NCBI GenBank assembly: GCA_049431025.1
Contig: JBMTCP010000008.1
Coordinates: 7,105 to 71,104 of the forward strand
Direction: 5' to 3'
Length of the DNA: 64,000 nt
Source: Bacteroidia bacterium
GTDB lineage: Bacteria > Bacteroidota > Bacteroidia > UBA7662
Made by a program: the position numbers and the translations under genes. Below are positions 1-9,481 of this stretch, piece by piece; the stretch's first letter is position 1, and each line of letters opens with the position of its first letter. Under the pieces are notes generated by a model that saw only the letters and a list, made by a program, of their open reading frames with translations, made no database searches and was not told the DNA's origin.

Positions 1-55
1 TTTTTCTTCTATAAAACTTGATTATATAATTTCAATTTCTCAAATTCGTTGTCCA

Positions 56-436
56 ATGAACACCCCCGATAACCTACGCTATACCGCCGAACACGAATGG
101 GTCGAGCTCCAAGATGGAGTCGCTACCGTCGGAATCACCGACTTTGCCCAAAGGGAATTGGGTGATATTGTCTTTGTTGAGTTGGATAGCCTGGGTCGCA
201 CCCTTAATCAAAACGAAGTTTTTGGAACCGTAGAGGCGGTCAAAACCGTTTCTGACCTCTACATGCCCCTCTCCGGGGAAATCATTGCCGTTAACCCCGG
301 CATCAACAGCAATCCCGAATGGGTGAACCAAAACCCTTACGGGGATGGTTGGATGATTCGGATTCAAACCACGCAGCCCCAGGAATGGGAGGCCTTGATG
401 GATGCAGCCGTCTACAGGCAGCATACCGGTCAGTAG
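56..436 (+). CDS. gcvH: glycine cleavage system protein H
   Basis: 126 aa. Lipoyl-attachment region around VEAVKTVSDLY and overall length and sequence are typical of GcvH. Confidence 0.9.
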   Translation: MNTPDNLRYTAEHEWVELQDGVATVGITDFAQRELGDIVFVELDSLGRTLNQNEVFGTVEAVKTVSDLYMPLSGEIIAVNPGINSNPEWVNQNPYGDGWMIRIQTTQPQEWEALMDAAVYRQHTGQ

Positions 437-469
437 AGCCCGGCCCAGCCCCTTTAATCCTATCCTTCG

Positions 470-868
470 ATGCGATCCAGGGGAAAATCTTTGGTTTATT
501 ACATGATGCCATCGGCCTTTTGGTCGGTCGTGATGGCGGTCTTAATGTTCATTCCTGGTTCCGGGTATCCTTCCTTGTCCTTTTCGGGAACTGATCTCCT
601 GGTTCATGTTTTTTTGTTTGCTATTTGGGCCTTTTTGACCGCTCAGGGCCTGTACAAACAAGCCCACTGGCCTGCACTTCGCTTTTACCGTGGCTTTGCG
701 GTCGTTTTACTGGGGGTGCTTTGGGGGGTGGTTTTGGAATTGGTTCAGGGATTGTTGCTTTGGGAGCGTAGCGCTGGATTGGACGATTACCTCGCCGATA
801 TCGTGGGGATTTTTGGAGGTCTCTTTATTTTTGAGCGCTTGGTCAAGGTTAGCCGGGGTCGTCGATAG
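470..868 (+). CDS. VanZ-like family membrane protein
   Basis: 132 aa with four predicted hydrophobic helices and a VanZ-like LELVQ/DDYLADIVG core. Confidence 0.6.
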   Translation: MRSRGKSLVYYMMPSAFWSVVMAVLMFIPGSGYPSLSFSGTDLLVHVFLFAIWAFLTAQGLYKQAHWPALRFYRGFAVVLLGVLWGVVLELVQGLLLWERSAGLDDYLADIVGIFGGLFIFERLVKVSRGRR

Positions 869-948
869 TTCTATTTCTCGGGGAGGACGCTGATTAATTA
901 TTACGCAAAACAAGTTTGTTCAAAATTTGCGTTCTTTGTGGAAAGCTT

Positions 949-1614
949 ATGGAACTCAAGAAAAACCCCAAGGCAGACCTTAACCTCCAAAGGACTCTGT
1001 TTTTTCAGATCGGGCTTTGTGTAGCCCTGGCCGGTACCCTGTATGCCTTCAATTGGCGTGATGATGATGGAGAAGCTGCCAGTCTTGGCACCCTTCAAAT
1101 GGAGGACCTTACCGAAATGGAAATTCCCCAAACGGAACAAAAGGTAACGCCTCCGCCGCCTCCACCGCCTCCAACCTTGGAAGTCGTCGCTGACGAGGAG
1201 GTCATTGAAGAGGACGAAGTCGCGTCCACCGAAGTAACCCAGGAAACCCGTATTGAGGTTCCTGTCGTCGAATTAGAGGAAGAGGTCGCGTCCGAGCCCG
1301 AAATTTTTACGGTGGTTGAAGAAATGCCTTCTTTTCCGGGTGGTGACCAAGAATTGCTCAAATTCATGGCCGAAAACACCAAATACCCACCTTTAGCCCG
1401 TGAAAATGGCCTCCAGGGTATTGTCGTGGTCACCTTTGTTGTGGACGAGCGCGGTCGAATTGACAAAGTTCAGGTGCTCCGTGGTATCGGTGGCGGTTGC
1501 GATGAAGAGGCTGTCCGCGTGGTCAAAGCCATGCCGCAGTGGAGAGCAGGTAAACAGCGTGGGATGCCGGTTAGGGTTCAATACAATTTGCCCTTCCGAT
1601 TTACCCTTCGCTAA
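949..1614 (+). CDS. energy transducer TonB (C-terminal TonB domain protein)
   Basis: N-terminal TM anchor, a PPPPPPPP proline-rich spacer and an acidic linker. The C-terminal TonB domain reads MPSFPGGDQELLKFMAENTKYPPLARENGLQGIVVVTFVVDERGRI...RFTL. An alternative in-frame start lies at 916. Confidence 0.8.
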   Translation: MELKKNPKADLNLQRTLFFQIGLCVALAGTLYAFNWRDDDGEAASLGTLQMEDLTEMEIPQTEQKVTPPPPPPPPTLEVVADEEVIEEDEVASTEVTQETRIEVPVVELEEEVASEPEIFTVVEEMPSFPGGDQELLKFMAENTKYPPLARENGLQGIVVVTFVVDERGRIDKVQVLRGIGGGCDEEAVRVVKAMPQWRAGKQRGMPVRVQYNLPFRFTLR

Positions 1615-1630
1615 CGAAGGGCGCTTTTTG
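1604..1630. terminator. rho-independent-type hairpin (CCCTTCG-CTAA-CGAAGGG) followed by CGCTTTTTG, between convergent tonB-like and sodA genes
   Basis: Perfect 7-bp stem, 4-nt loop and T-run read directly from the sequence. The tonB stop codon lies in the loop. Confidence 0.5.
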
Positions 1631-1685
1631 ATCAACGACAAAGGGCGGTTCGCATCCTGGTCAGCGGGCTCCTCGAGAGCCGCTA

Positions 1686-2438
1686 TTAGCGGCTCGCTTG
1701 GGCAAAGCGGGATGAGACCTCATCCCAGTTCAAAACATTCCAAAAAGCATTCACGTAATCCGCTCTGCGGTTTTGGAATTTCAAGTAATAGGAATGTTCC
1801 CAAACATCCAAACCCAACAGGGGAAAGCCCCCACATCCGTTTTGTTTTTCGGTATCCATGAGCGGATTGTCCTGGTTGGCGGTTGAGCACAAATGCAGCG
1901 CTCCGTCCTTGTAACACAGCCAGGCCCAACCGCTTCCAAACCTGGCCATTGCGGCCTTGGAAAATTGCTCTTTCAGGGCCTCCACGGTTCCAAAGCTTTT
2001 TTGGATTGCGGCCATAAGGGGCTCGGATGGACTTGTACCTGCTTGGGGGGTAAGGATTTTCCAAAACAGCGAATGGTTGTAATGACCGCCTCCGTTATTG
2101 CGTACGGCCACGGGTAGGGACGAAATCATCCCCATCAATTCCTCCAACGAACGATCCGCGTGGGGCGTTCCGGTCAATGCAGCATTGAGGTTGTTGACAT
2201 AAGCTGCATGGTGTTTGGAATGATGAATTTCCATAGTCATGGCATCAAAATGGGGCTCCAAAGCATTGTAGGCGTAGGGTAGGGCGGGGAGTTCGAAAGA
2301 CATGGTAGTGTTAAAGTTTGATGGTGAAGTTGGATTTGTAGCGGCATCTTGGGCCTTCAAAAGCCCACCAAAGCGTGGAAAGACGAGGAGGCCCGTGAGC
2401 CCCATCAAAGTCTTTTGTATCCAATCGCGGCGGTTCAT
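1686..2438 (-). CDS. sodA: superoxide dismutase, Mn-type, with twin-arginine (Tat) signal peptide
   Basis: Fe/Mn SOD signatures ([14 protein letters not shown]). The Mn-type discriminators [11 protein letters not shown] and NQDNP are present. The N-terminus [19 protein letters not shown] resembles a Tat signal. Confidence 0.85.
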
Positions 2439-2471
2439 TATTAAGGTCCAGGTTCAATCGGTTTTTGTAAT

Positions 2472-2507
2472 ATCAAGTGAGCTCTGTCAAAATTAAACGC
2501 ACTTGAT
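2472..2507. promoter_or_regulatory. perfect 8-bp inverted repeat ATCAAGTG-N20-CACTTGAT (with nested ACGCA-N5-TGCGT) in the divergent sodA/metal-transporter intergenic region; candidate operator
   Basis: Read directly from the sequence. Its position between divergently transcribed metal-related genes suggests a metalloregulator site. Confidence 0.3.
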
Positions 2508-2643
2508 GCGTACAAAGTTCATTCGGCGATTAGATTTGGATAAACCATTGAGACGCCGACTTGCGTTAAATTCTATTGAAAGTAGGGTTGGGTGAGGGGT
2601 TGTTTTTTTAGACACAACTAAATTACCTTTGGGTCTTGATGTT

Positions 2644-4500
2644 ATGATGTTGGTGTCCCCTTGTTTAAGGTTTCGGCTTCGCTGGGTTGGGTTCCTGGGT
2701 TGGGGGCTTTTACTCCTGACGGAGCTCCACAGCGCGGTAGCCGCCGAAATCAGCCAAGGAAGCAAAGTCGTCCAAGGGAATCCGCCACGGGTCGTTGCAA
2801 CCACCGGGTTTTTGGCGGATATCGCGTCACAAATAGCGGGTCCTTCGGCCCTTGTGGTTTCCTTGCTTCCGCAGGGTTCCGATCCTCACCGTTACGATGC
2901 CGTTCCTAACGACACCAAAAGGCTTGCCGAAGCCGATTTGATTATCCAAAACGGTCTCAACCTGGAAGGCTGGCTGGACAAACTCATTGCCCAGGCCGCA
3001 AGCAAGGCTCAAAAAGTGACTGCGAGCGATGGAATCGCTGCCCTCAGCGACCCCCAGCACCCCGGCTCCTACGATCCGCACGCGTGGATGGATCCCGTGC
3101 TGGGGCGGGTTTATGCCCGCAATATTTACCGCGCCCTCTTGGCCCTTTGTCCCAATGATTCAATAAACCTAACCCGTCGTTGGTCAGATTATGATCAGCG
3201 CTTGGTGGCTCTGCACGAGGAATGCGATGCCTTGCTCCGTACGGTTCCCGATAAGTTCCGGGTCTTGGCCACGAACCATGACGCATTTCGGTATTTTGCA
3301 GCAAGGTATCGTTTTCGGGTGGTTTCTTTGTTGGGTACAAGTACGGATGCCGATGTACGAACCTCCGATGTTTTGCACATGAAACAAGTGGTTCTTCAAA
3401 ACGATTTACCCTGTGTTTTTGTGGAGGCCAATCTGAATCCCAAAATGTTACAACAAATTGCACAGGATGCGGGTTGTCGTTTGGGGCCCGCACTGTATGC
3501 GGACAGCATGGGTCCTCCAGGCAGTGGGGCGGATTCCTATACCGGTATGTTGTCCAGCAATGCGAGGGTTTTGGCATCCTCGCTGGGAGGCAAAGGGACC
3601 CCAAACAGGACCTCGGACCATTCGGCGCCGGTTTCGGTGTTTTGGGTTTTGAGCTTAATGCTCCCTGCAGGGGCTTTTTTGGCCTGGTCTTTGCGGCCAT
3701 CGCGCTCTGCTAACGCGATTTCCACCGGCCCTAACGAAGACAAACCGGGTCCGCGATTACGGGTTCAGGATCTTAGCGTAACCTACGATCGTAAGTCGGT
3801 CCTGAATGCTTTTTCGGCGGAATTCCATGAGGGATTGTGTTACGGTATATTAGGGCCGAACGGAGCCGGAAAGTCCACGTTATTCAAGGCGATTCTGGGA
3901 TTGAACGAGCCGGACCACGGTAACATTGAATACCGGCAAGAGCCGGTAAGGGTTTCCCCAAGGCGCATCGCTTATGTTCCCCAAAAAGGTATGGTGGACT
4001 GGGACTTTCCGGCCACCGTCCAAGACATCGTTCAAATGGGACGATTGCCGTGGCGGGGGGCCGGGCGACCCCTGGGTCGCGCGGACCTGCGGTCCGTCCA
4101 GGAAGCCCTGGAAGCCCTGGAGTTGGTGGACCTGCGCCACCGTCCCCTCAACCAACTTTCCGGGGGGCAGCAACAAAGGGTCTTCCTGGCCCGGGCCCTC
4201 GCCCAAGAAGCCGAAACCCTCTTGTTGGATGAGCCCTTCGTGGGGGTGGATGCCGCCACCGAGGCCAAAATTGTGGAAATACTCCATCGGTTTACCCGGG
4301 AACAAGGGGGCTTGGTGCTCATGATCCACCACGACCTTCAAAGGGCCAACACCTATTTTGATGAGGTCCTATTGATAAACCAACGCCTCATTGCCCAAGG
4401 CCCCCCGGAAGAGATTCTGGTCGAATCCAACCTGCTCAAGGCCTTTTCGGGGGTGGACCCCGGCTACGCAGACGCCGCCCAATACCGCAACAAACGCTGA
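2644..4500 (+). CDS. fused metal ABC transporter: periplasmic substrate-binding protein (TroA/ZnuA cluster A-I) - TM helix - ABC ATPase (ZnuC/MntB-like)
   Basis: Signal peptide MMLVSPCLRF...HSAVA. SBP motifs DPHRYDA, DPHAWMDP, NHDAFRYF. Hydrophobic segment VSVFWVLSLMLPAGAFLAWSL at about 3630-3695. The NBD carries Walker A GPNGAGKST, signature LSGGQQQRV and Walker B LLLDEP. There is no in-frame stop between the domains. The ORF track starts at TTG 2629; the first ATG is at 2644. Confidence 0.75.
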   Translation: MMLVSPCLRFRLRWVGFLGWGLLLLTELHSAVAAEISQGSKVVQGNPPRVVATTGFLADIASQIAGPSALVVSLLPQGSDPHRYDAVPNDTKRLAEADLIIQNGLNLEGWLDKLIAQAASKAQKVTASDGIAALSDPQHPGSYDPHAWMDPVLGRVYARNIYRALLALCPNDSINLTRRWSDYDQRLVALHEECDALLRTVPDKFRVLATNHDAFRYFAARYRFRVVSLLGTSTDADVRTSDVLHMKQVVLQNDLPCVFVEANLNPKMLQQIAQDAGCRLGPALYADSMGPPGSGADSYTGMLSSNARVLASSLGGKGTPNRTSDHSAPVSVFWVLSLMLPAGAFLAWSLRPSRSANAISTGPNEDKPGPRLRVQDLSVTYDRKSVLNAFSAEFHEGLCYGILGPNGAGKSTLFKAILGLNEPDHGNIEYRQEPVRVSPRRIAYVPQKGMVDWDFPATVQDIVQMGRLPWRGAGRPLGRADLRSVQEALEALELVDLRHRPLNQLSGGQQQRVFLARALAQEAETLLLDEPFVGVDAATEAKIVEILHRFTREQGGLVLMIHHDLQRANTYFDEVLLINQRLIAQGPPEEILVESNLLKAFSGVDPGYADAAQYRNKR

Positions 4501-4501
4501 A

Positions 4502-5851
4502 ATGGAAGCCCTGGAAACGACCTGGACCCTTTGGGACTACCTCCAACAGCCTTATTTTCAAAGGGCCCTTGGGGCAGCGATTATGGCCGGCACCGCCTGC
4601 GCCCTTTTGGGTTGTTTTATGGTGTTACGAAACATGGCCCTGATTGGCGATGCGCTTTCGCACGCCATACTGCCGGGGGTTGTGGTGGGTTTTATGATTG
4701 CAGGTCATAGTTTACTTGCCTTTTTTGTTGGTTCCGTTATGGCCGGTTTGTTCGCGGCAGTGCTGATTGCCTGGTTGCAAAACCGGGGTGGGGCTCGAAA
4801 CGACGCCGCTATCGGAATTGTTTTTTCGGCAATGTTCGCTTTGGGTGTTATCGGGATTTCTACACTTACCCGGCGTGAAGGGGTACACCTGGACATGAAA
4901 GATTTTTTGTTTGGTAATGTGTTAGGAATTGGTCAAGATGATTTGGTTTTGTCTGCCCTGGTTTTGGTTTTCGATGTCTTTTGTATTGGGGTGTTTTTGC
5001 CTTATTTCTTTGCCTCCGCATTTCAGGCCGATGTTGCCCAAACCATGGGAATCCCTACCCGTATTCTGCATTATTTCACCGTTTGGATGCTTAGCCTGAC
5101 GGTGGTGGCTTCCTTGCAATCGGTGGGCGTCATTTTGGTCGTATCCATGCTTATCGTACCTGCTTCCACGGCTTTGATCATGAGCCATAAACTACAAAAA
5201 GTCCTGCTTTGGGCTATGGGCTTAGGGGCCTTTAGTTCGGCCAGCGGGCTTATGGCCTCGGTCTATTGGGATACCGCGCCCGGTCCGGCGATCACCCTTA
5301 CCGCCACATTCCTGTACCTTATCGTTTTGGTGGGCCATCCCCAAAGAGGATTATGGCCCCAAAAGATGCGTAAAGCCCTTCGAATCTGGCAACATTGGGC
5401 CGAAGATTTTATCAAAGCCCTGCATCGTAACCCGGATTATAACAACAAACAAATCCAAGACGAATTGGGATGGAGCCCAAGAATCCTTTACCTCTCTCTG
5501 CTTTATTGCCGTAACAAAGGATGGATTCTTACCGATTCCAAGAACAAATCGCAATCGGCCCTCACCCCAACCGGGCTCCAGAAAGCCTTGAATATGGTTA
5601 GGGCCCACCGGCTCTGGGAAAGTTATTTGGCCCAAAAGCAAGGCTTTGAACCGCATCAATTGCATTGGTTGGCCGAGAAGGATGAACACGTGCTACCCCA
5701 AGAGTTTTTGGATCAAATCGACCAACGCCTGGGATTCCCCGATTTGGATCCCCACGGCTCACCCATACCACGAAACGAAGCCCATCCAAGCCCAAAGCCA
5801 CCATCAGCTCCAACGGGCTTCGACCCATCAGCCGCTCGTAAAGGCCTCTAA
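4502..5851 (+). CDS. fused ABC-3 family metal permease (ZnuB/MntC/TroC-like) - DtxR/MntR-family metalloregulator (HTH plus metal-binding dimerisation domain)
   Basis: The N-terminal roughly 280 aa is a multi-TM permease (LGCFMVLRNMALIGDALSHAILPGVV). The C-terminal roughly 170 aa has a winged helix (NKQIQDELGWSPRILYLSLLYCRNKGWIL...LTPTG) and a DtxR-like VRAHRLWESYL...EKDEHVLPQEFLDQIDQRLGFPDLDPHGSPIP. The ATG at 4502 follows the upstream stop directly. Confidence 0.75.
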   Translation: MEALETTWTLWDYLQQPYFQRALGAAIMAGTACALLGCFMVLRNMALIGDALSHAILPGVVVGFMIAGHSLLAFFVGSVMAGLFAAVLIAWLQNRGGARNDAAIGIVFSAMFALGVIGISTLTRREGVHLDMKDFLFGNVLGIGQDDLVLSALVLVFDVFCIGVFLPYFFASAFQADVAQTMGIPTRILHYFTVWMLSLTVVASLQSVGVILVVSMLIVPASTALIMSHKLQKVLLWAMGLGAFSSASGLMASVYWDTAPGPAITLTATFLYLIVLVGHPQRGLWPQKMRKALRIWQHWAEDFIKALHRNPDYNNKQIQDELGWSPRILYLSLLYCRNKGWILTDSKNKSQSALTPTGLQKALNMVRAHRLWESYLAQKQGFEPHQLHWLAEKDEHVLPQEFLDQIDQRLGFPDLDPHGSPIPRNEAHPSPKPPSAPTGFDPSAARKGL

Positions 5852-6906
5852 AGAGTCGTTCCTGCTGCGATTTCGCCTTTGTTGGCCAATTGGCCGCAGG
5901 CGGCATCGATATCCCGGCCCCGGCTGCGACGAAAACTGCAGGTAATTCCTGCATCCTCCAGGGCTTCGGTATAAGCTGCAATGGCCGATGGATGAGCCTG
6001 CTTCAAATGATCCTCGCCCACGCTGTTGTATTCGATCAAATTCACCTTGCTTGGAAATTTCCGTGCAAAACGAACCAAAGCGCGTACGTCTTCTTCCCCA
6101 TCATTCACGCCCTCCCAGACCACGTATTCCAAGGTAACTCGGCTCTTGGTTTGCTGGTACCAATACGACAAAGCAGCTTCCAAATCGGACAGCGTATTCG
6201 TTTCGTTAATGGGCATGAGGCGACTTCGCTTGGACTCAATGGCTGAATGCAGGGAAAGGGCTAATTTGAAGCGAACCTTTTCGTCCGCCATTTGACGGAT
6301 CATTTTGGCTACTCCCGCCGTGCTTACGGTTATTCGTCGGGGAGAAAGCCCCAAGCCTGTGGGAGAGGTTATTTTTTCGATGGCCTCCAACGTGTTACGG
6401 TAATTGAGTAAGGGTTCACCCATACCCATAAACACAATATTGGTCAAGGGCCTTCCCAGGGTTTCTTGCGCCTGCTTCTGGATTGCAACCACTTGATCAT
6501 AAATCTCATCGGGATTCAAATTCCGCATTCTTTTCATCCGAGCCGTTGCACAAAACGTACAACCCAGGCTGCAACCCACCTGGGATGACACACAAGCGGT
6601 GATGCGGGTGGGTGTTGGAATCATCACCGACTCCACCACCAAACCATCGTGCAGGGTTAATGCGTTCTTGATCGTGCCATCCTTGCTGTATTGGGAGTGC
6701 TGAACCTTGAGGTTACGTATTTCAAAATGTTCTTCCAGGCGGTTTCTCAAGGCCAACGATAAATTGGTCATATCGCCAATTTGGGTTGCCCCCTTGTTCC
6801 ATAACCATTCGTAAACCTGCCTGGCTCGGTAAGCGGGCTCCCCCCATTCGGCCAAGCGCTGGGTTAATTCCTCCAAACGAAGGCTTCGGATATCGGTTTT
6901 GGTCAT
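5848..6906 (-). CDS. rlmN: 23S rRNA (adenine2503-C2)-methyltransferase RlmN (radical SAM)
   Basis: CxxxCxxC radical SAM motif GCSLGCTFCATA and an overall RlmN/Cfr-like sequence. The start was chosen at the Met whose ATG overlaps the upstream gene stop by 1 nt. An alternative start lies at 6933. Confidence 0.85.
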   Translation of the reverse strand: MTKTDIRSLRLEELTQRLAEWGEPAYRARQVYEWLWNKGATQIGDMTNLSLALRNRLEEHFEIRNLKVQHSQYSKDGTIKNALTLHDGLVVESVMIPTPTRITACVSSQVGCSLGCTFCATARMKRMRNLNPDEIYDQVVAIQKQAQETLGRPLTNIVFMGMGEPLLNYRNTLEAIEKITSPTGLGLSPRRITVSTAGVAKMIRQMADEKVRFKLALSLHSAIESKRSRLMPINETNTLSDLEAALSYWYQQTKSRVTLEYVVWEGVNDGEEDVRALVRFARKFPSKVNLIEYNSVGEDHLKQAHPSAIAAYTEALEDAGITCSFRRSRGRDIDAACGQLANKGEIAAGTTL

Positions 6907-8561
6907 TAGCGCCAACGAAGTTCGGTGGTCCAACCGGGTTTGAGCTCCAAATTACGGCTAATCCAACGGACTGTTTCCGGTTGGCGCCCCTCACGGTAAC
7001 GACCGGCATCCCATTCGCCGTTGTTGTTGCGGTCCTCCAGGACCGAAACCTTGTACAGGCCCGGCAAAATACCTTCCAGCGCATGAAGCGTCAATCCTTC
7101 TTCGCGGCTCTTGTAAACCAAGCGCTCCACCAGCTGATCGTCCATGGTCCAAACACTTAAAACCAAGGACCCCGACCTATCCCATTCGTCCAAAGCCGTA
7201 TCCAGGCCCAAAACCAAAGCGGCGCGCTCCCCCTCTTGACCCCAGTCGGCCTGATAGGGCCCGCTCTCGCGATCGTTACCATCCACAAATGCCCCGCTAT
7301 CCACACGCAAGCGCCATTCGGCGGCCAACTTCTTGTCCGTTTCCGGAGCCAACGCATACCATTCCTTTCCGGCAGATCCATAAGGTGTTCGACCCTCGGC
7401 ATCTCGTTTCCAAACCACGGCCTTCTCGCCTTTTTGGGCATGCTGCCAGCAAGCCAAAGACTTTCCATCTTGGTAATGAACCGGACGGTCCCATACCAAT
7501 CGCCGCTCCATCGCATGAACCGCCGGACCCCACGAAACGACTTTGGGTCCCATAACCCGGCCCAAGGCCTCTTGCTTCGGGTCCTTTCCTTCTTCCTGCG
7601 AATGGAGTTCAGTCAACAGGGTATCCGTGCCCTGTGGAAAGACCACCCGCAAAGCAAAAGACGATTCCCCCTGGGGGGGCACCGAAACCCAAAGAGTATC
7701 CCCCGAAACCCGTGTTTGGGCGCCGTAAATCAAAAGGCCGTCCTCGTTAACCGCCCTAACCTTGATCGCATAGGGTTTCCCATAAAAAACCAAGGCCAGG
7801 GAGCCATCCTCGGACCATTTCCAACGACGGAGCCGGGTAGAGGCCTCTTCGTCCTGAGCGAAAAGCGGCAGCAAAACCGCCGTATCAACGGTTGGATCCA
7901 AAAAGCCCGTAAAGGCTTTGGGTTGGTCGGGCCCATAGGCCTTATCCCGTTCCGGGTCTTCAAAAGCTACCAGTCGGTATATGCGCGTTGGCAGATTGCG
8001 AAAAACAAAGCGACCAGAATCATCGGCCAAGGTCCAACGCAAGGGCATAACGGACTCCGAACGATCTGCGTAAAGGCCGACTGTCAAATTTTTGACGGGC
8101 ATCCCGCTGCGGGCATCCCGAATGCGGCCCTGCAACGACAACGAATCCAAATAGGTCCCCGTTGAAAAAGCATAGGTAAGTTTTGATAACACATTTCCTT
8201 CGGTAAGGTCGGAGACAGCCCCACCCAAATCCACGCTGTACGTTGATGCTTCCTCCAAAGAATCGGAATCCAAAATCAAATACACCCGCTTGAGCCTGGT
8301 TCTCAATTCGTTACGACCCCTAGGGACCAAGCCCCACCGAACCAGGCCGGGGTCTTTGACCTGAACATATTCATCAAATTCAAAAACCAATCGGTCCGGC
8401 CTTTGTCCTACACTTTGATCGGGTGGGGTAACTCGGATTAATCGGGGTGGGGTTTGGTCTTTGGCCCCCCCATCCGGAGGCACAATGTTAGCGCAAGCGT
8501 TAAAAAGCAGGAGCAACAGCGAACCAAGAACCCAACGCATGCCTGCCCAATAATTCCTCAA
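6906..8561 (-). CDS. lipoprotein with N-terminal bacterial Ig-like domain, function unknown
   Basis: Signal peptide plus lipobox LLLLLFNAC. The N-terminal PPRLIRVTPPDQSV...LVFEFDEYV resembles Big_5/SbsA-type Ig-like domains. No catalytic motif recognised. Confidence 0.5.
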   Translation of the reverse strand: MRNYWAGMRWVLGSLLLLLFNACANIVPPDGGAKDQTPPRLIRVTPPDQSVGQRPDRLVFEFDEYVQVKDPGLVRWGLVPRGRNELRTRLKRVYLILDSDSLEEASTYSVDLGGAVSDLTEGNVLSKLTYAFSTGTYLDSLSLQGRIRDARSGMPVKNLTVGLYADRSESVMPLRWTLADDSGRFVFRNLPTRIYRLVAFEDPERDKAYGPDQPKAFTGFLDPTVDTAVLLPLFAQDEEASTRLRRWKWSEDGSLALVFYGKPYAIKVRAVNEDGLLIYGAQTRVSGDTLWVSVPPQGESSFALRVVFPQGTDTLLTELHSQEEGKDPKQEALGRVMGPKVVSWGPAVHAMERRLVWDRPVHYQDGKSLACWQHAQKGEKAVVWKRDAEGRTPYGSAGKEWYALAPETDKKLAAEWRLRVDSGAFVDGNDRESGPYQADWGQEGERAALVLGLDTALDEWDRSGSLVLSVWTMDDQLVERLVYKSREEGLTLHALEGILPGLYKVSVLEDRNNNGEWDAGRYREGRQPETVRWISRNLELKPGWTTELRWR

Positions 8562-9481
8562 CCTTTACGAAAAACATAGAGCTTGCTGCTCGCTCCTCGG
8601 TCTTTCTTGACCGTTCTCCACCAAAAACCCAGCCCCATCAACAAACCGCGCACCGGACTATCCTTGCCCCGCTTGTATTTTTCGCTAAGCATCGAAATAT
8701 AAAAGGGGTCGAGGGGGAGGTTAATCTCTTCAACACAGGCAAATCCCGCCTGTTCTATGCGAAACCTCAGCACGGTGCTCTTAAAATGATACAAATGGCG
8801 AGGCACATCCCAGGCGGCCCAAAATTCTCGGTAATGGCTGGCATCCAAGGACTCGCTGTTGGGAACCGCAATAAACAAATACCCCCCTTTGCGAACCAAG
8901 CGCGTAAATTGGTCGATTCGTTCGCCCAGATCCCGAACATGTTCCAGCACGTGCCAGAGGGTAACGGCATCGTAGGCCTCTTTGGGTTCCTTCAACCAGT
9001 CCTCCGAATGCACCGCTAAGCCGTGCTTGGACTCGGCCCGGGCCCGGGCCATTGAATCCGGTTCCACGGCATCCACGGTCCAGCCCGCTGTTTTCATATA
9101 ACCTGCAAAATCCCCGGTACCACAACCAATATCCAGTAAGCGTCCCTTTTTGGGGACCACCCGCTCAACCCAAGACCGCTTTAGACCCAAGGTCCACTGA
9201 CGAGCCCACCGATAAAGGCGATAGATCCAGCCGCTGGCTTCATCGTCGGTATGCGATATGTAATCCGCAAAGCGATAGTACCGTTCCATGTCTTCGGGTA
9301 GAGGACGGGGATTGGTAAATCGCAAACCACAGTCTTTGCATTGGGTAATGTTAAAAATTTCTCCGCTTGCACTAAAATCCTTGACCTTCAAAAAGGAATA
9401 AAGTTTTTCGCTTTGACAAAGCGGACAAGACCAAATCTGTTCCAAGGCTGATAAAAGATTGCGGGGGTAAAAATCGCCCAA
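8558..9481 (-). CDS. class I SAM-dependent methyltransferase with N-terminal Cys4 zinc ribbon
   Basis: SAM motif LLDIGCGTGDFAGYM, plus LWHVLEHV and a CPLCQS...CKDCGL zinc ribbon. Confidence 0.7.
   Translation of the reverse strand: MGDFYPRNLLSALEQIWSCPLCQSEKLYSFLKVKDFSASGEIFNITQCKDCGLRFTNPRPLPEDMERYYRFADYISHTDDEASGWIYRLYRWARQWTLGLKRSWVERVVPKKGRLLDIGCGTGDFAGYMKTAGWTVDAVEPDSMARARAESKHGLAVHSEDWLKEPKEAYDAVTLWHVLEHVRDLGERIDQFTRLVRKGGYLFIAVPNSESLDASHYREFWAAWDVPRHLYHFKSTVLRFRIEQAGFACVEEINLPLDPFYISMLSEKYKRGKDSPVRGLLMGLGFWWRTVKKDRGASSKLYVFRKG

Follow-up and report, generated by a model that had tools for sequence, protein, structure and literature searches.

The stretch analysed here (hereafter the window) comprises 64,000 nucleotides of contig JBMTCP010000008.1 of a Bacteroidia bacterium (assembly GCA_049431025.1, positions 7,105 to 71,104 of the forward strand). 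One of its genes appears to join in a single polypeptide the metal-binding protein and the ATPase of an ATP-binding cassette (ABC) importer. The open reading frame (ORF) extends on the forward strand from 2629 to 4500 without interruption, the stop codon occupying 4498-4500, and contains in succession a signal peptide, a ZnuA/TroA-type domain, a 21-residue hydrophobic helix, a basic linker of about 21 residues and an ABC ATPase; a permease gene follows (Table 1). Residue numbers refer to the 623-aa frame beginning at TTG 2629, and subtracting 5 gives positions in the protein that starts at ATG 2644. Conservation is assessed throughout in an alignment of 95 full-length homologues, 97% down to 38% identical and drawn from independent NCBI, JGI, ENA and Logan assemblies. 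A preliminary description of the locus had placed a binding protein, a helix and an ATPase in one stop-free ORF at 2644-4500. We find the frame open throughout and both Pfam domains complete; the motifs quoted at the time are all present, with key residues invariant, and the 21-residue hydrophobic segment then pointed out, VSVFWVLSLMLPAGAFLAWSL (aa 335-355), is a helix in the AlphaFold2 (AF2) model.

Domains of the fused protein

The binding domain matches Pfam ZnuA (PF01297) over aa 55-316 with an E value of 9e-67, 261 of the 263 profile positions being covered. It displays the motifs DPH(87)RYDA, DPH(151)AWMDP and NH(217)DAFRYF, as well as D292, and these supply the candidate metal ligands listed in Table 1. 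Its nearest relatives in the PDB are 8SVC, 5KZJ, PsaA and TroA (1TOA, 1K0F), with MntC-type proteins also among the closest solved structures. The AF2 model of residues 54-320 is confident (predicted local distance difference test score, pLDDT, mostly >90) and includes the long backbone helix at 175-203. Upstream, the signal-peptide region is modelled as a helix (20-41) of low pLDDT, and a signal-like hydrophobic stretch is found at the N-terminus of 83 of the 95 homologues. An N-terminal lipid anchor is not indicated: the predicted signal peptide ends ...LHSAVA/AE (the slash marking the cleavage site), and the sole cysteine, C12, precedes the hydrophobic core.

The C-terminal half matches ABC_tran (PF00005) over aa 392-537 (E 4e-30). 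It has a Walker A motif (GPNGAGKST, aa 409-417), the LSGGQ signature (aa 510-514), a Walker B motif (LLLDE, aa 531-535), Q452 and H568, and the catalytic residues G409-T417, Q452, L510-Q514, D534/E535 and H568 are invariant in the alignment. The closest ATPase of solved structure is PsaB (7KYO, E 1.6e-52). When compared with NCBIfam models, the two halves come nearest to AztC/MntC-type binding proteins and MntA/AztA-type ATPases, every score lying under the equivalog cut-off. The AF2 model of the whole protein, built on the 95-sequence alignment, has a mean pLDDT of 86.5 and comprises two confident globular domains, the ATPase corresponding to residues 377-622.

Table 1. Features of the fused gene and its surroundings in the window
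Feature	Position	Strand	Remarks
Fused gene: signal peptide + ZnuA-type binding domain + transmembrane helix + ABC ATPase	2644..4500	+	618 aa plus stop; the 97%-identical P0001 starts at the matching ATG
Predicted Sec signal peptide MMLVSPCLRFRLRWVGFLGWGLLLLTELHSAVA/AE	2644..2742	+	without lipobox; cleavage site inferred by the AxA rule
Cluster A-I (ZnuA/TroA-fold) metal-binding domain	2791..3588	+	aa 55-320; Pfam ZnuA PF01297
Candidate metal ligands H87, H151, H217, D292	2887-2889, 3079-3081, 3277-3279, 3502-3504	+	invariant in 95 homologues
Periplasmic flexible linker (predicted)	3589..3630	+	aa 321-334; AF2 pLDDT ~52; no conserved column
Single transmembrane (stop-transfer) helix (predicted) VSVFWVLSLMLPAGAFLAWSL	3631..3693	+	aa 335-355; hydropathy + AF2; contains ATG 3658
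Cytoplasmic basic linker (predicted) RPSRSANAISTGPNEDKPGPR	3694..3756	+	aa 356-376; K+R enriched past helix
ABC nucleotide-binding domain	3757..4497	+	aa 377-623; Walker A 3853-3879, LSGGQ 4156-4170, Walker B 4219-4233
Putative -7 promoter element TACCTTTG	2624..2631	+	fits Bacteroidota consensus TAnnTTTG; just 5' of start codon, overlaps TTG 2629
ABC-3 permease with C-terminal DtxR/MntR-like metal-binding and dimerisation domain	4502..5851	+	Pfam ABC-3 (PF00950) E 4e-65, Fe_dep_repr_C E 6e-22
Fe/Mn superoxide dismutase with twin-arginine-like signal (MNRRDWIQK...)	1686..2438	-	divergent from transporter; possible consumer of imported metal

Recurrence and distribution of the fusion

A search for orthologs with the same architecture had been proposed from the outset, and it found the fusion kept in 95/95 full-length homologues. 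PF01297 and PF00005 occur together in all of the 120 best database clusters, which reach down to 40% identity; 117 of these have lengths of 559-721 aa, and the other three (P0015, P0017 and P0018) are truncated at 372-497 aa. One fused homologue, P0010, is present with its exact sequence in NCBI, JGI/IMG and Logan, on 8 contigs. Because the same fusion recurs in independent assemblies, we regard it as genuine and not as an assembly error. Neither a read-through error nor a lone exception among homologues that are otherwise always encoded separately, the two outcomes that the preliminary description had named as fatal to its proposal, is compatible with homologues that are fused in other assemblies.

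A profile search of 1.84 billion representative proteins (clustered at 50% identity) returned about 10 fused clusters and about 17 further clusters in which the binding protein is anchored and unfused; beyond those came just plain binding proteins and lone ATPases. The named sources of the fused family are Bacteroidota metagenome-assembled genomes (MAGs), all but one. On this census the family appears rare and phylogenetically narrow, and the early judgement that the architecture is unusual is borne out. Searches of the full-text literature retrieved no description of a binding-protein/transmembrane (TM)/ATPase polypeptide, the InterPro and TCDB catalogues lying outside the search, so that prior cataloguing is possible. 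The term "SBD-NBD" in PMC8144104 was considered as a mention of such a fusion and rejected, since it denotes gene order.

Two sets of hits that would have extended the distribution were discarded. An apparent broad spread (Paenibacillus, Rhodobacteraceae, Planctomycetes and others) was due to ordinary adjacent genes joined by tblastn reporting, as found at 79 of the 80 best genome loci; frame analysis left L001, from a Sphingobacteriia MAG and 64% identical, as the sole true fusion among the 80. Hits of 520-660 aa with two matching stretches were candidates for independent binding-domain/ATPase fusions, and Pfam analysis of ten of them identified nine ATPase-ATPase tandems and one binding-domain tandem (P0218).

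One MAG of the P0002 cluster carries a close homologue that appears in the annotation as a pair of proteins, P0133 (461 aa) and P0132 (142 aa), both encoded on a single contig of 4755 nt. The split falls within the ATPase domain; it probably reflects a frameshift or an error in assembling this MAG rather than natural fission where the two domains meet. Annotation pipelines label the fused proteins generically, for example as "zinc ABC transporter substrate-binding protein".

The helix, its linkers and the membrane topology

A hydrophobic helix separates the two domains in all 95 homologues, the best 19-residue Kyte-Doolittle window scoring at least 1.5 in each and 2.57 on average. In the AF2 model of the window protein, there is one helix at exactly 335-355, flanked by low-confidence linkers at 321-334 and 356-376. 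Lysine and arginine (K+R) residues within 15 positions of the helix average 1.45 before it and 3.1 after it, and acidic residues are located mainly on its N-terminal side; therefore, the flanks display the positive-inside pattern of an N-out, C-in helix. Together with the signal-like stretch at the N-terminus, these properties support the topology put forward in the preliminary description, in which the binding domain would be outside the cell, the helix would span the membrane and the ATPase would be inside.

The junction conserves character and length. Its helix sequence is completely different between subclades and keeps its hydrophobicity; no conserved motif was found in the helix or the linkers, the interval L319-L382 being devoid of any invariant or near-invariant column in the 95 homologues. 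The periplasmic linker has a median length of 13 residues and a minimum of 7. From the end of the helix to L382, the distance has a median of 21, falls between 17 and 23 in 78 of the 95 homologues and is never below 17. When the gene is compared with that of an 80%-identical relative, L081, the ratio of nonsynonymous to synonymous substitution rates (dN/dS) is 0.06 for the binding domain, 0.11 for the ATPase, 0.19 for linkers plus helix and 0.16 for the helix alone. The value of 0.19 indicates that the junction is translated in this frame under purifying selection. The tether would be passive and not signal-transmitting, because the helix is unconserved and its link to the ATPase has repeatedly been split (see below).

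An internal ATG at 3658 was considered as a conserved second start codon and rejected. It encodes Met344, in the middle of the helix, and is confined to the closest clade.

Relatives with the anchor and a separate ATPase

Ordinary binding proteins of the family end ...NVxTIVxALK, with no hydrophobic tail. Nine loci of Saprospiraceae, Chitinophagales and unclassified Bacteroidota (L002, L003, L043, L049-L053 and L061) encode a binding protein with a TM anchor at its C-terminus and, as a separate gene, the ATPase. These loci share with the fused gene the signal peptide, the C-terminal helix, the basic residues past the helix and the downstream ATPase. Where the C-termini were read, a stop codon occurs 4-8 residues past the helix. 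Of six junctions written out, five have an unambiguous separate ATPase start, which follows as TAA-TAA-GTG or TAA-ATG, overlaps by 11 nt in another frame, or lies beyond a spacer ~200 nt long; in the sixth, L051, the ATPase frame opens 40 nt downstream, in a different frame. The anchored, unfused binding domains reach 68% identity with their fused counterparts and no more than 47% with those of unanchored, plain proteins.

Neighbour-joining (NJ) trees were built with 200 bootstrap replicates and the fused or unfused state was mapped by Fitch parsimony. The two forms interleave on the tree. Anchor-bearing sequences constitute one clade of the NJ tree (bootstrap 74/200), and each of the 200 bootstrap trees requires 7-13 transitions between the fused and unfused states, a count that tree error may have inflated. 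Two conclusions are robust: possession of the membrane anchor is what marks the lineage, and the join to the ATPase was gained or lost several times via changes at one stop codon. The C-terminal anchor would have come first and the in-frame join to the ATPase later, to be made and reverted repeatedly. On this evidence the covalent join arises from recurrent loss of a stop codon, an event that is probably near-neutral. The anchor, rather than the fusion, is the conserved feature and the actual innovation, because in close relatives the binding protein is anchored in the same way and the ATPase has a gene of its own.

Start codon and promoter region

The gene almost certainly starts at ATG 2644. 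TTG 2629, at which the frame opens, was rejected as a start because the 97%-identical P0001 (618 aa) begins MMLVSP and because a conserved TAnnTTTG element at 2624-2631 overlaps this codon. TAnnTTTG is the published -7 promoter consensus of Bacteroidota. The block CTAAATTAaCTTTG, lying directly 5' of the start codon, is kept in the window, L081 and L001, and we interpret it as a putative promoter element. In the window (2620-2649), ~12 nt separate its end from ATG 2644, so that the leader would be very short; L081 and L001 have their start codon no more than 5 nt past the TTTG block. An ATG at a similar distance from the block exists in the window, at 2639. It is out of frame and meets a TGA after two codons; therefore, the start has shifted to 2644. 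When the intergenic region 2439-2643 was inspected for inverted repeats or a palindrome resembling an MntR box, one weak match only was found, at 2468-2495 (71% complementary).

The permease and neighbouring genes

The permease gene begins 1 nt past the stop codon of the fused gene. The same permease with a DtxR-like domain follows every fused homologue examined (the window, L001, L081, L082/L083 and L084) and is the sole permease gene there. A single permease gene is characteristic of the fused and anchored clade, whereas most ordinary loci have two. The DtxR-like domain shares 43% identity with the corresponding part of a stand-alone MntR, and comparison with this MntR detected no similarity to its DNA-binding domain in the ~65 residues that precede the DtxR-like domain. 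This suggests that the tail would sense metal in the cytoplasm and act on the transporter through trans-inhibition, not serve as a repressor. Our searches of the full-text literature found no paper describing a permease-DtxR fusion. Its candidacy as a trait specific to the clade was rejected, as ordinary loci in several phyla commonly have the fusion too: it occurs in Verrucomicrobia, Planctomycetes, Spirochaetes and other Bacteroidota, usually beside a second, plain permease.

Among the anchored, unfused loci, L002 and L043 have the same permease-DtxR partner as the window. In L003 (5243-9073) the gene after the ATPase encodes a MatE transporter and not an ABC-3 permease; L049-L053 and L061 likewise lack an ABC-3 permease gene at this position. 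A stand-alone MntR gene is found upstream in most anchored, unfused loci.

In the window, the superoxide dismutase (SOD) gene is transcribed divergently from the transporter. A divergent SOD (Sod_Fe_N + Sod_Fe_C) is also present in L081 and L082/L083 and is absent from L084; the arrangement hints that the imported metal may be Mn, destined for an exported SOD. Gene order in window 1-9481 is that of L081: GcvH, a VanZ-like protein, a TonB_C protein, SOD and the fused transporter gene, followed by the permease-DtxR gene, RlmN, a Big_5 protein and a methyltransferase. L081 also has SprA (type IX secretion) upstream, which supports a Bacteroidota origin of the window. Its SOD-transporter intergenic region (~5690-5900) contains repeated GCCCCATTGCACTG units around a run of N, an insert that the window does not have. 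The 3' ends of the permease-DtxR gene (forward strand, ending at 5851) and of the convergent RlmN gene (reverse strand, 5848-6933) have 4 nt in common.

Discussion

ABC importers are the textbook example of modular transport systems, and the fusions known among them link a permease with an ATPase, two ATPases with each other, or a binding domain with a permease. By fold and predicted chemistry, the system of the window is a member of the ABC-3/cluster A-I family of metal importers, and it is in its organisation that it differs. PsaBCA of Streptococcus pneumoniae, MntBC-A of Bacillus anthracis and ZnuABC are built from the same PF01297, PF00950 and PF00005 families, and PsaBC and MntBC have, like the window, one permease gene and hence a homodimeric translocator. 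These systems consist of three separate polypeptides, with a binding protein that is soluble in the periplasm or lipidated at its N-terminus. In contrast, the binding domain of the window has a C-terminal TM helix that runs on into the ATPase, and its permease has a DtxR-like domain. TroABCD-TroR of Treponema pallidum offers a parallel in gene order (binding protein, ATPase, permease, DtxR-family protein). However, Tro comprises five separate genes, two of them for permeases, whereas the window has one permease and its components come in fused pairs, A linked to B and the permease to an R-like domain in which no DNA-binding region was detected.

An analogy for the tether itself comes from OpuA and GlnPQ. 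In these importers too a short flexible linker attaches the binding domain covalently, so that a single translocation pathway is supplied by two such domains (or four). A fixed stoichiometry and a high local concentration result, as would be expected in the window. Yet OpuA and GlnPQ are type I importers with unrelated (cluster F-type) binding domains fused to the permease, whereas the domain of the window belongs with PF01297 and PF00950 to a type II-like metal family and reaches the ATPase across the membrane through a TM helix of its own, leaving the permease separate. A counterpart of OpuA within the metal family is seen in P0195 (589 aa; ZnuA + ABC-3) and P0194 (869 aa; ZnuA + ABC-3 + Fe_dep_repr_C + FeoA), both from the search of representative proteins, in which the binding domain is joined directly to the N-terminus of the permease. 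These proteins represent a second, OpuA-like route to tethering, which has therefore evolved at least twice in the metal family. Their layout is consistent with an N-out permease of nine TM helices. Finally, the tethered domain would mimic the permease-bound binding proteins of the type II importers BtuCD-F and FhuCDB, which associate non-covalently, use FecCD-family permeases with 10 TM helices and transport other substrates.

It seems likely to us that the fused gene yields a single polypeptide, a type I membrane protein that acts as a tethered subunit of a Zn/Mn ABC importer. The signal peptide would send the metal-binding domain out through Sec, the hydrophobic helix would act as a stop-transfer anchor, and the ABC ATPase would fold in the cytoplasm. 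Two such chains would assemble with a permease homodimer, giving the importer the composition (binding domain-TM-ATPase)2 (permease-DtxR-like)2; it would belong to the Mn/Zn/Fe-chelate (ABC-3) family and resemble PsaBC, MntBC or TroBCD. A homodimeric translocator is expected because there is one permease gene only. Each complex would have two tethered binding domains and probably one docking site. A divalent metal, Zn2+ and/or Mn2+, would be captured at the His-His-His-Asp site, the binding domain would swing on its linker to dock on the permease, and the covalently attached ATPases would hydrolyse ATP to drive import. The helix and both linkers would serve as passive tethers that keep the binding domain at the membrane and its copy number at 1:1 with the motor. 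The preliminary description had the binding protein permanently docked in 1:1 stoichiometry. Of this, the tethering and the 1:1 ratio to the motor stand; permanent docking does not, given a flexible linker of ~14 residues. Type II binding proteins have been found to be permease-bound in vivo, at a stoichiometry of no more than 1:1 (PMC12094219, a 2025 proteomics study), and metal importers of the ABC-3 family are type II-like (PMC8487065). For these two reasons, a binding domain that is permanently tethered and never released is plausible.

Import of Zn or Mn is the most likely function suggested by the sequence. His-His-His-Asp is the ligand pattern of TroA and AztC (a likeness at the level of ligand sets), whereas Mn-specific PsaA has His-His-Glu-Asp. 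More generally, the third ligand is Glu in PsaA and MntC and His in the Zn/TroA type, as in the window. By analogy, the ligand set points to Zn2+ or to a broad, TroA-like Zn/Mn range.

The alternative that fares best is that one real ORF gives rise to two proteins, an anchored binding protein and a free ATPase, through initiation near the end of the helix or through proteolysis of the linker, the outcome being functionally that of the unfused Saprospiraceae version. Close relatives use exactly such a pair, and no conservation is seen in the cytoplasmic linker, for which disorder is predicted. We nevertheless consider this unlikely. Met344 is confined to the closest clade, and initiation there would give an ATPase with half a TM helix; the linker has neither a conserved start codon nor a motif across the 95 homologues; and the bound on linker length (at least 17 residues, mostly 17-23), which fits the span from membrane to ATPase, would be unexplained if the chain were cut.

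A more active role for the helix can also be envisioned. It might be a functional part of the translocator, such as the tenth helix missing from nine-TM permeases, with the chain relaying the occupancy of the binding domain to the ATPase, an idea that we rate as very unlikely. MntC-type permeases are modelled with 9 TM helices as opposed to 10 in the solved type II importers (PMC8487065), the length of the cytoplasmic linker is tightly bounded, and there is one permease gene in the fused and anchored clade. However, the lack of any conserved residue in the helix and linkers, the complete difference of the helix between subclades, the many occasions on which the ATPase link was broken and remade, and the predicted disorder of both linkers all speak against such a role. 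The fuller version, in which the helix and cytoplasmic linker constitute an allosteric or mechanical wire that stands in for the tenth helix of a nine-TM permease and relays docking or metal loading to the ATPase, with DtxR-like trans-inhibition in addition, is distinctly unlikely. If true, it would amount to a direct route of trans-membrane coupling. We know of no ABC importer with such a route.

A stop codon or frame lost by sequencing or assembly error between two ordinary neighbouring genes is virtually inconceivable: separate adjacent genes are indeed the norm at the best genome loci, and the annotation of one close MAG homologue divides it into P0133 and P0132, but the fusion is shared by 117 full-length clusters of 97%-40% identity from four independent data sources, including P0010 on its 8 contigs, read-through of an ordinary gene pair could not create an extra 21-residue helix and linkers, and the junction has the dN/dS of a translated segment.

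Several considerations nonetheless weigh against a single-chain, tethered Zn/Mn importer subunit. The fusion is known from sequence alone, every carrier being an uncultured MAG or a metagenome contig. Within the ORF, ATG 3658 and an in-frame TTG, which encodes L355 where the helix reaches its cytoplasmic end, are available as internal starts; since Bacteroidota do not rely on Shine-Dalgarno sites, an internal start stays compatible with the sequence. Internal initiation or post-translational cleavage would give the arrangement of the relatives. Metal specificity is ambiguous, the neighbouring Fe/Mn SOD and the MntR-like sensor leaning towards Mn and the ligand set towards Zn. Bootstrap support for the monophyly of the anchor-bearing clade is weak, and the transition count stems from simple NJ trees and Fitch parsimony. 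Lastly, frequent fission shows that the covalent link is dispensable, which leaves any functional advantage of the fusion conjectural.

Since the fusion has reverted repeatedly, its own mechanistic contribution seems to be small, which limits its importance, and the fused protein is probably not a new mechanism. It is nevertheless a polypeptide that would begin outside the cell as a binding protein and end inside as a motor, a layout that our searches of the full-text literature found nowhere described, and its fixed stoichiometry would be useful for structural work. The family appears to record gene fusion in steps, first an anchor and then the loss of a stop codon. PMC12094219 raised the question whether type II-like metal importers need to release their binding protein at any point; the family would offer a natural test of this, with the anchored, unfused sister systems as a matched control for the fused form.

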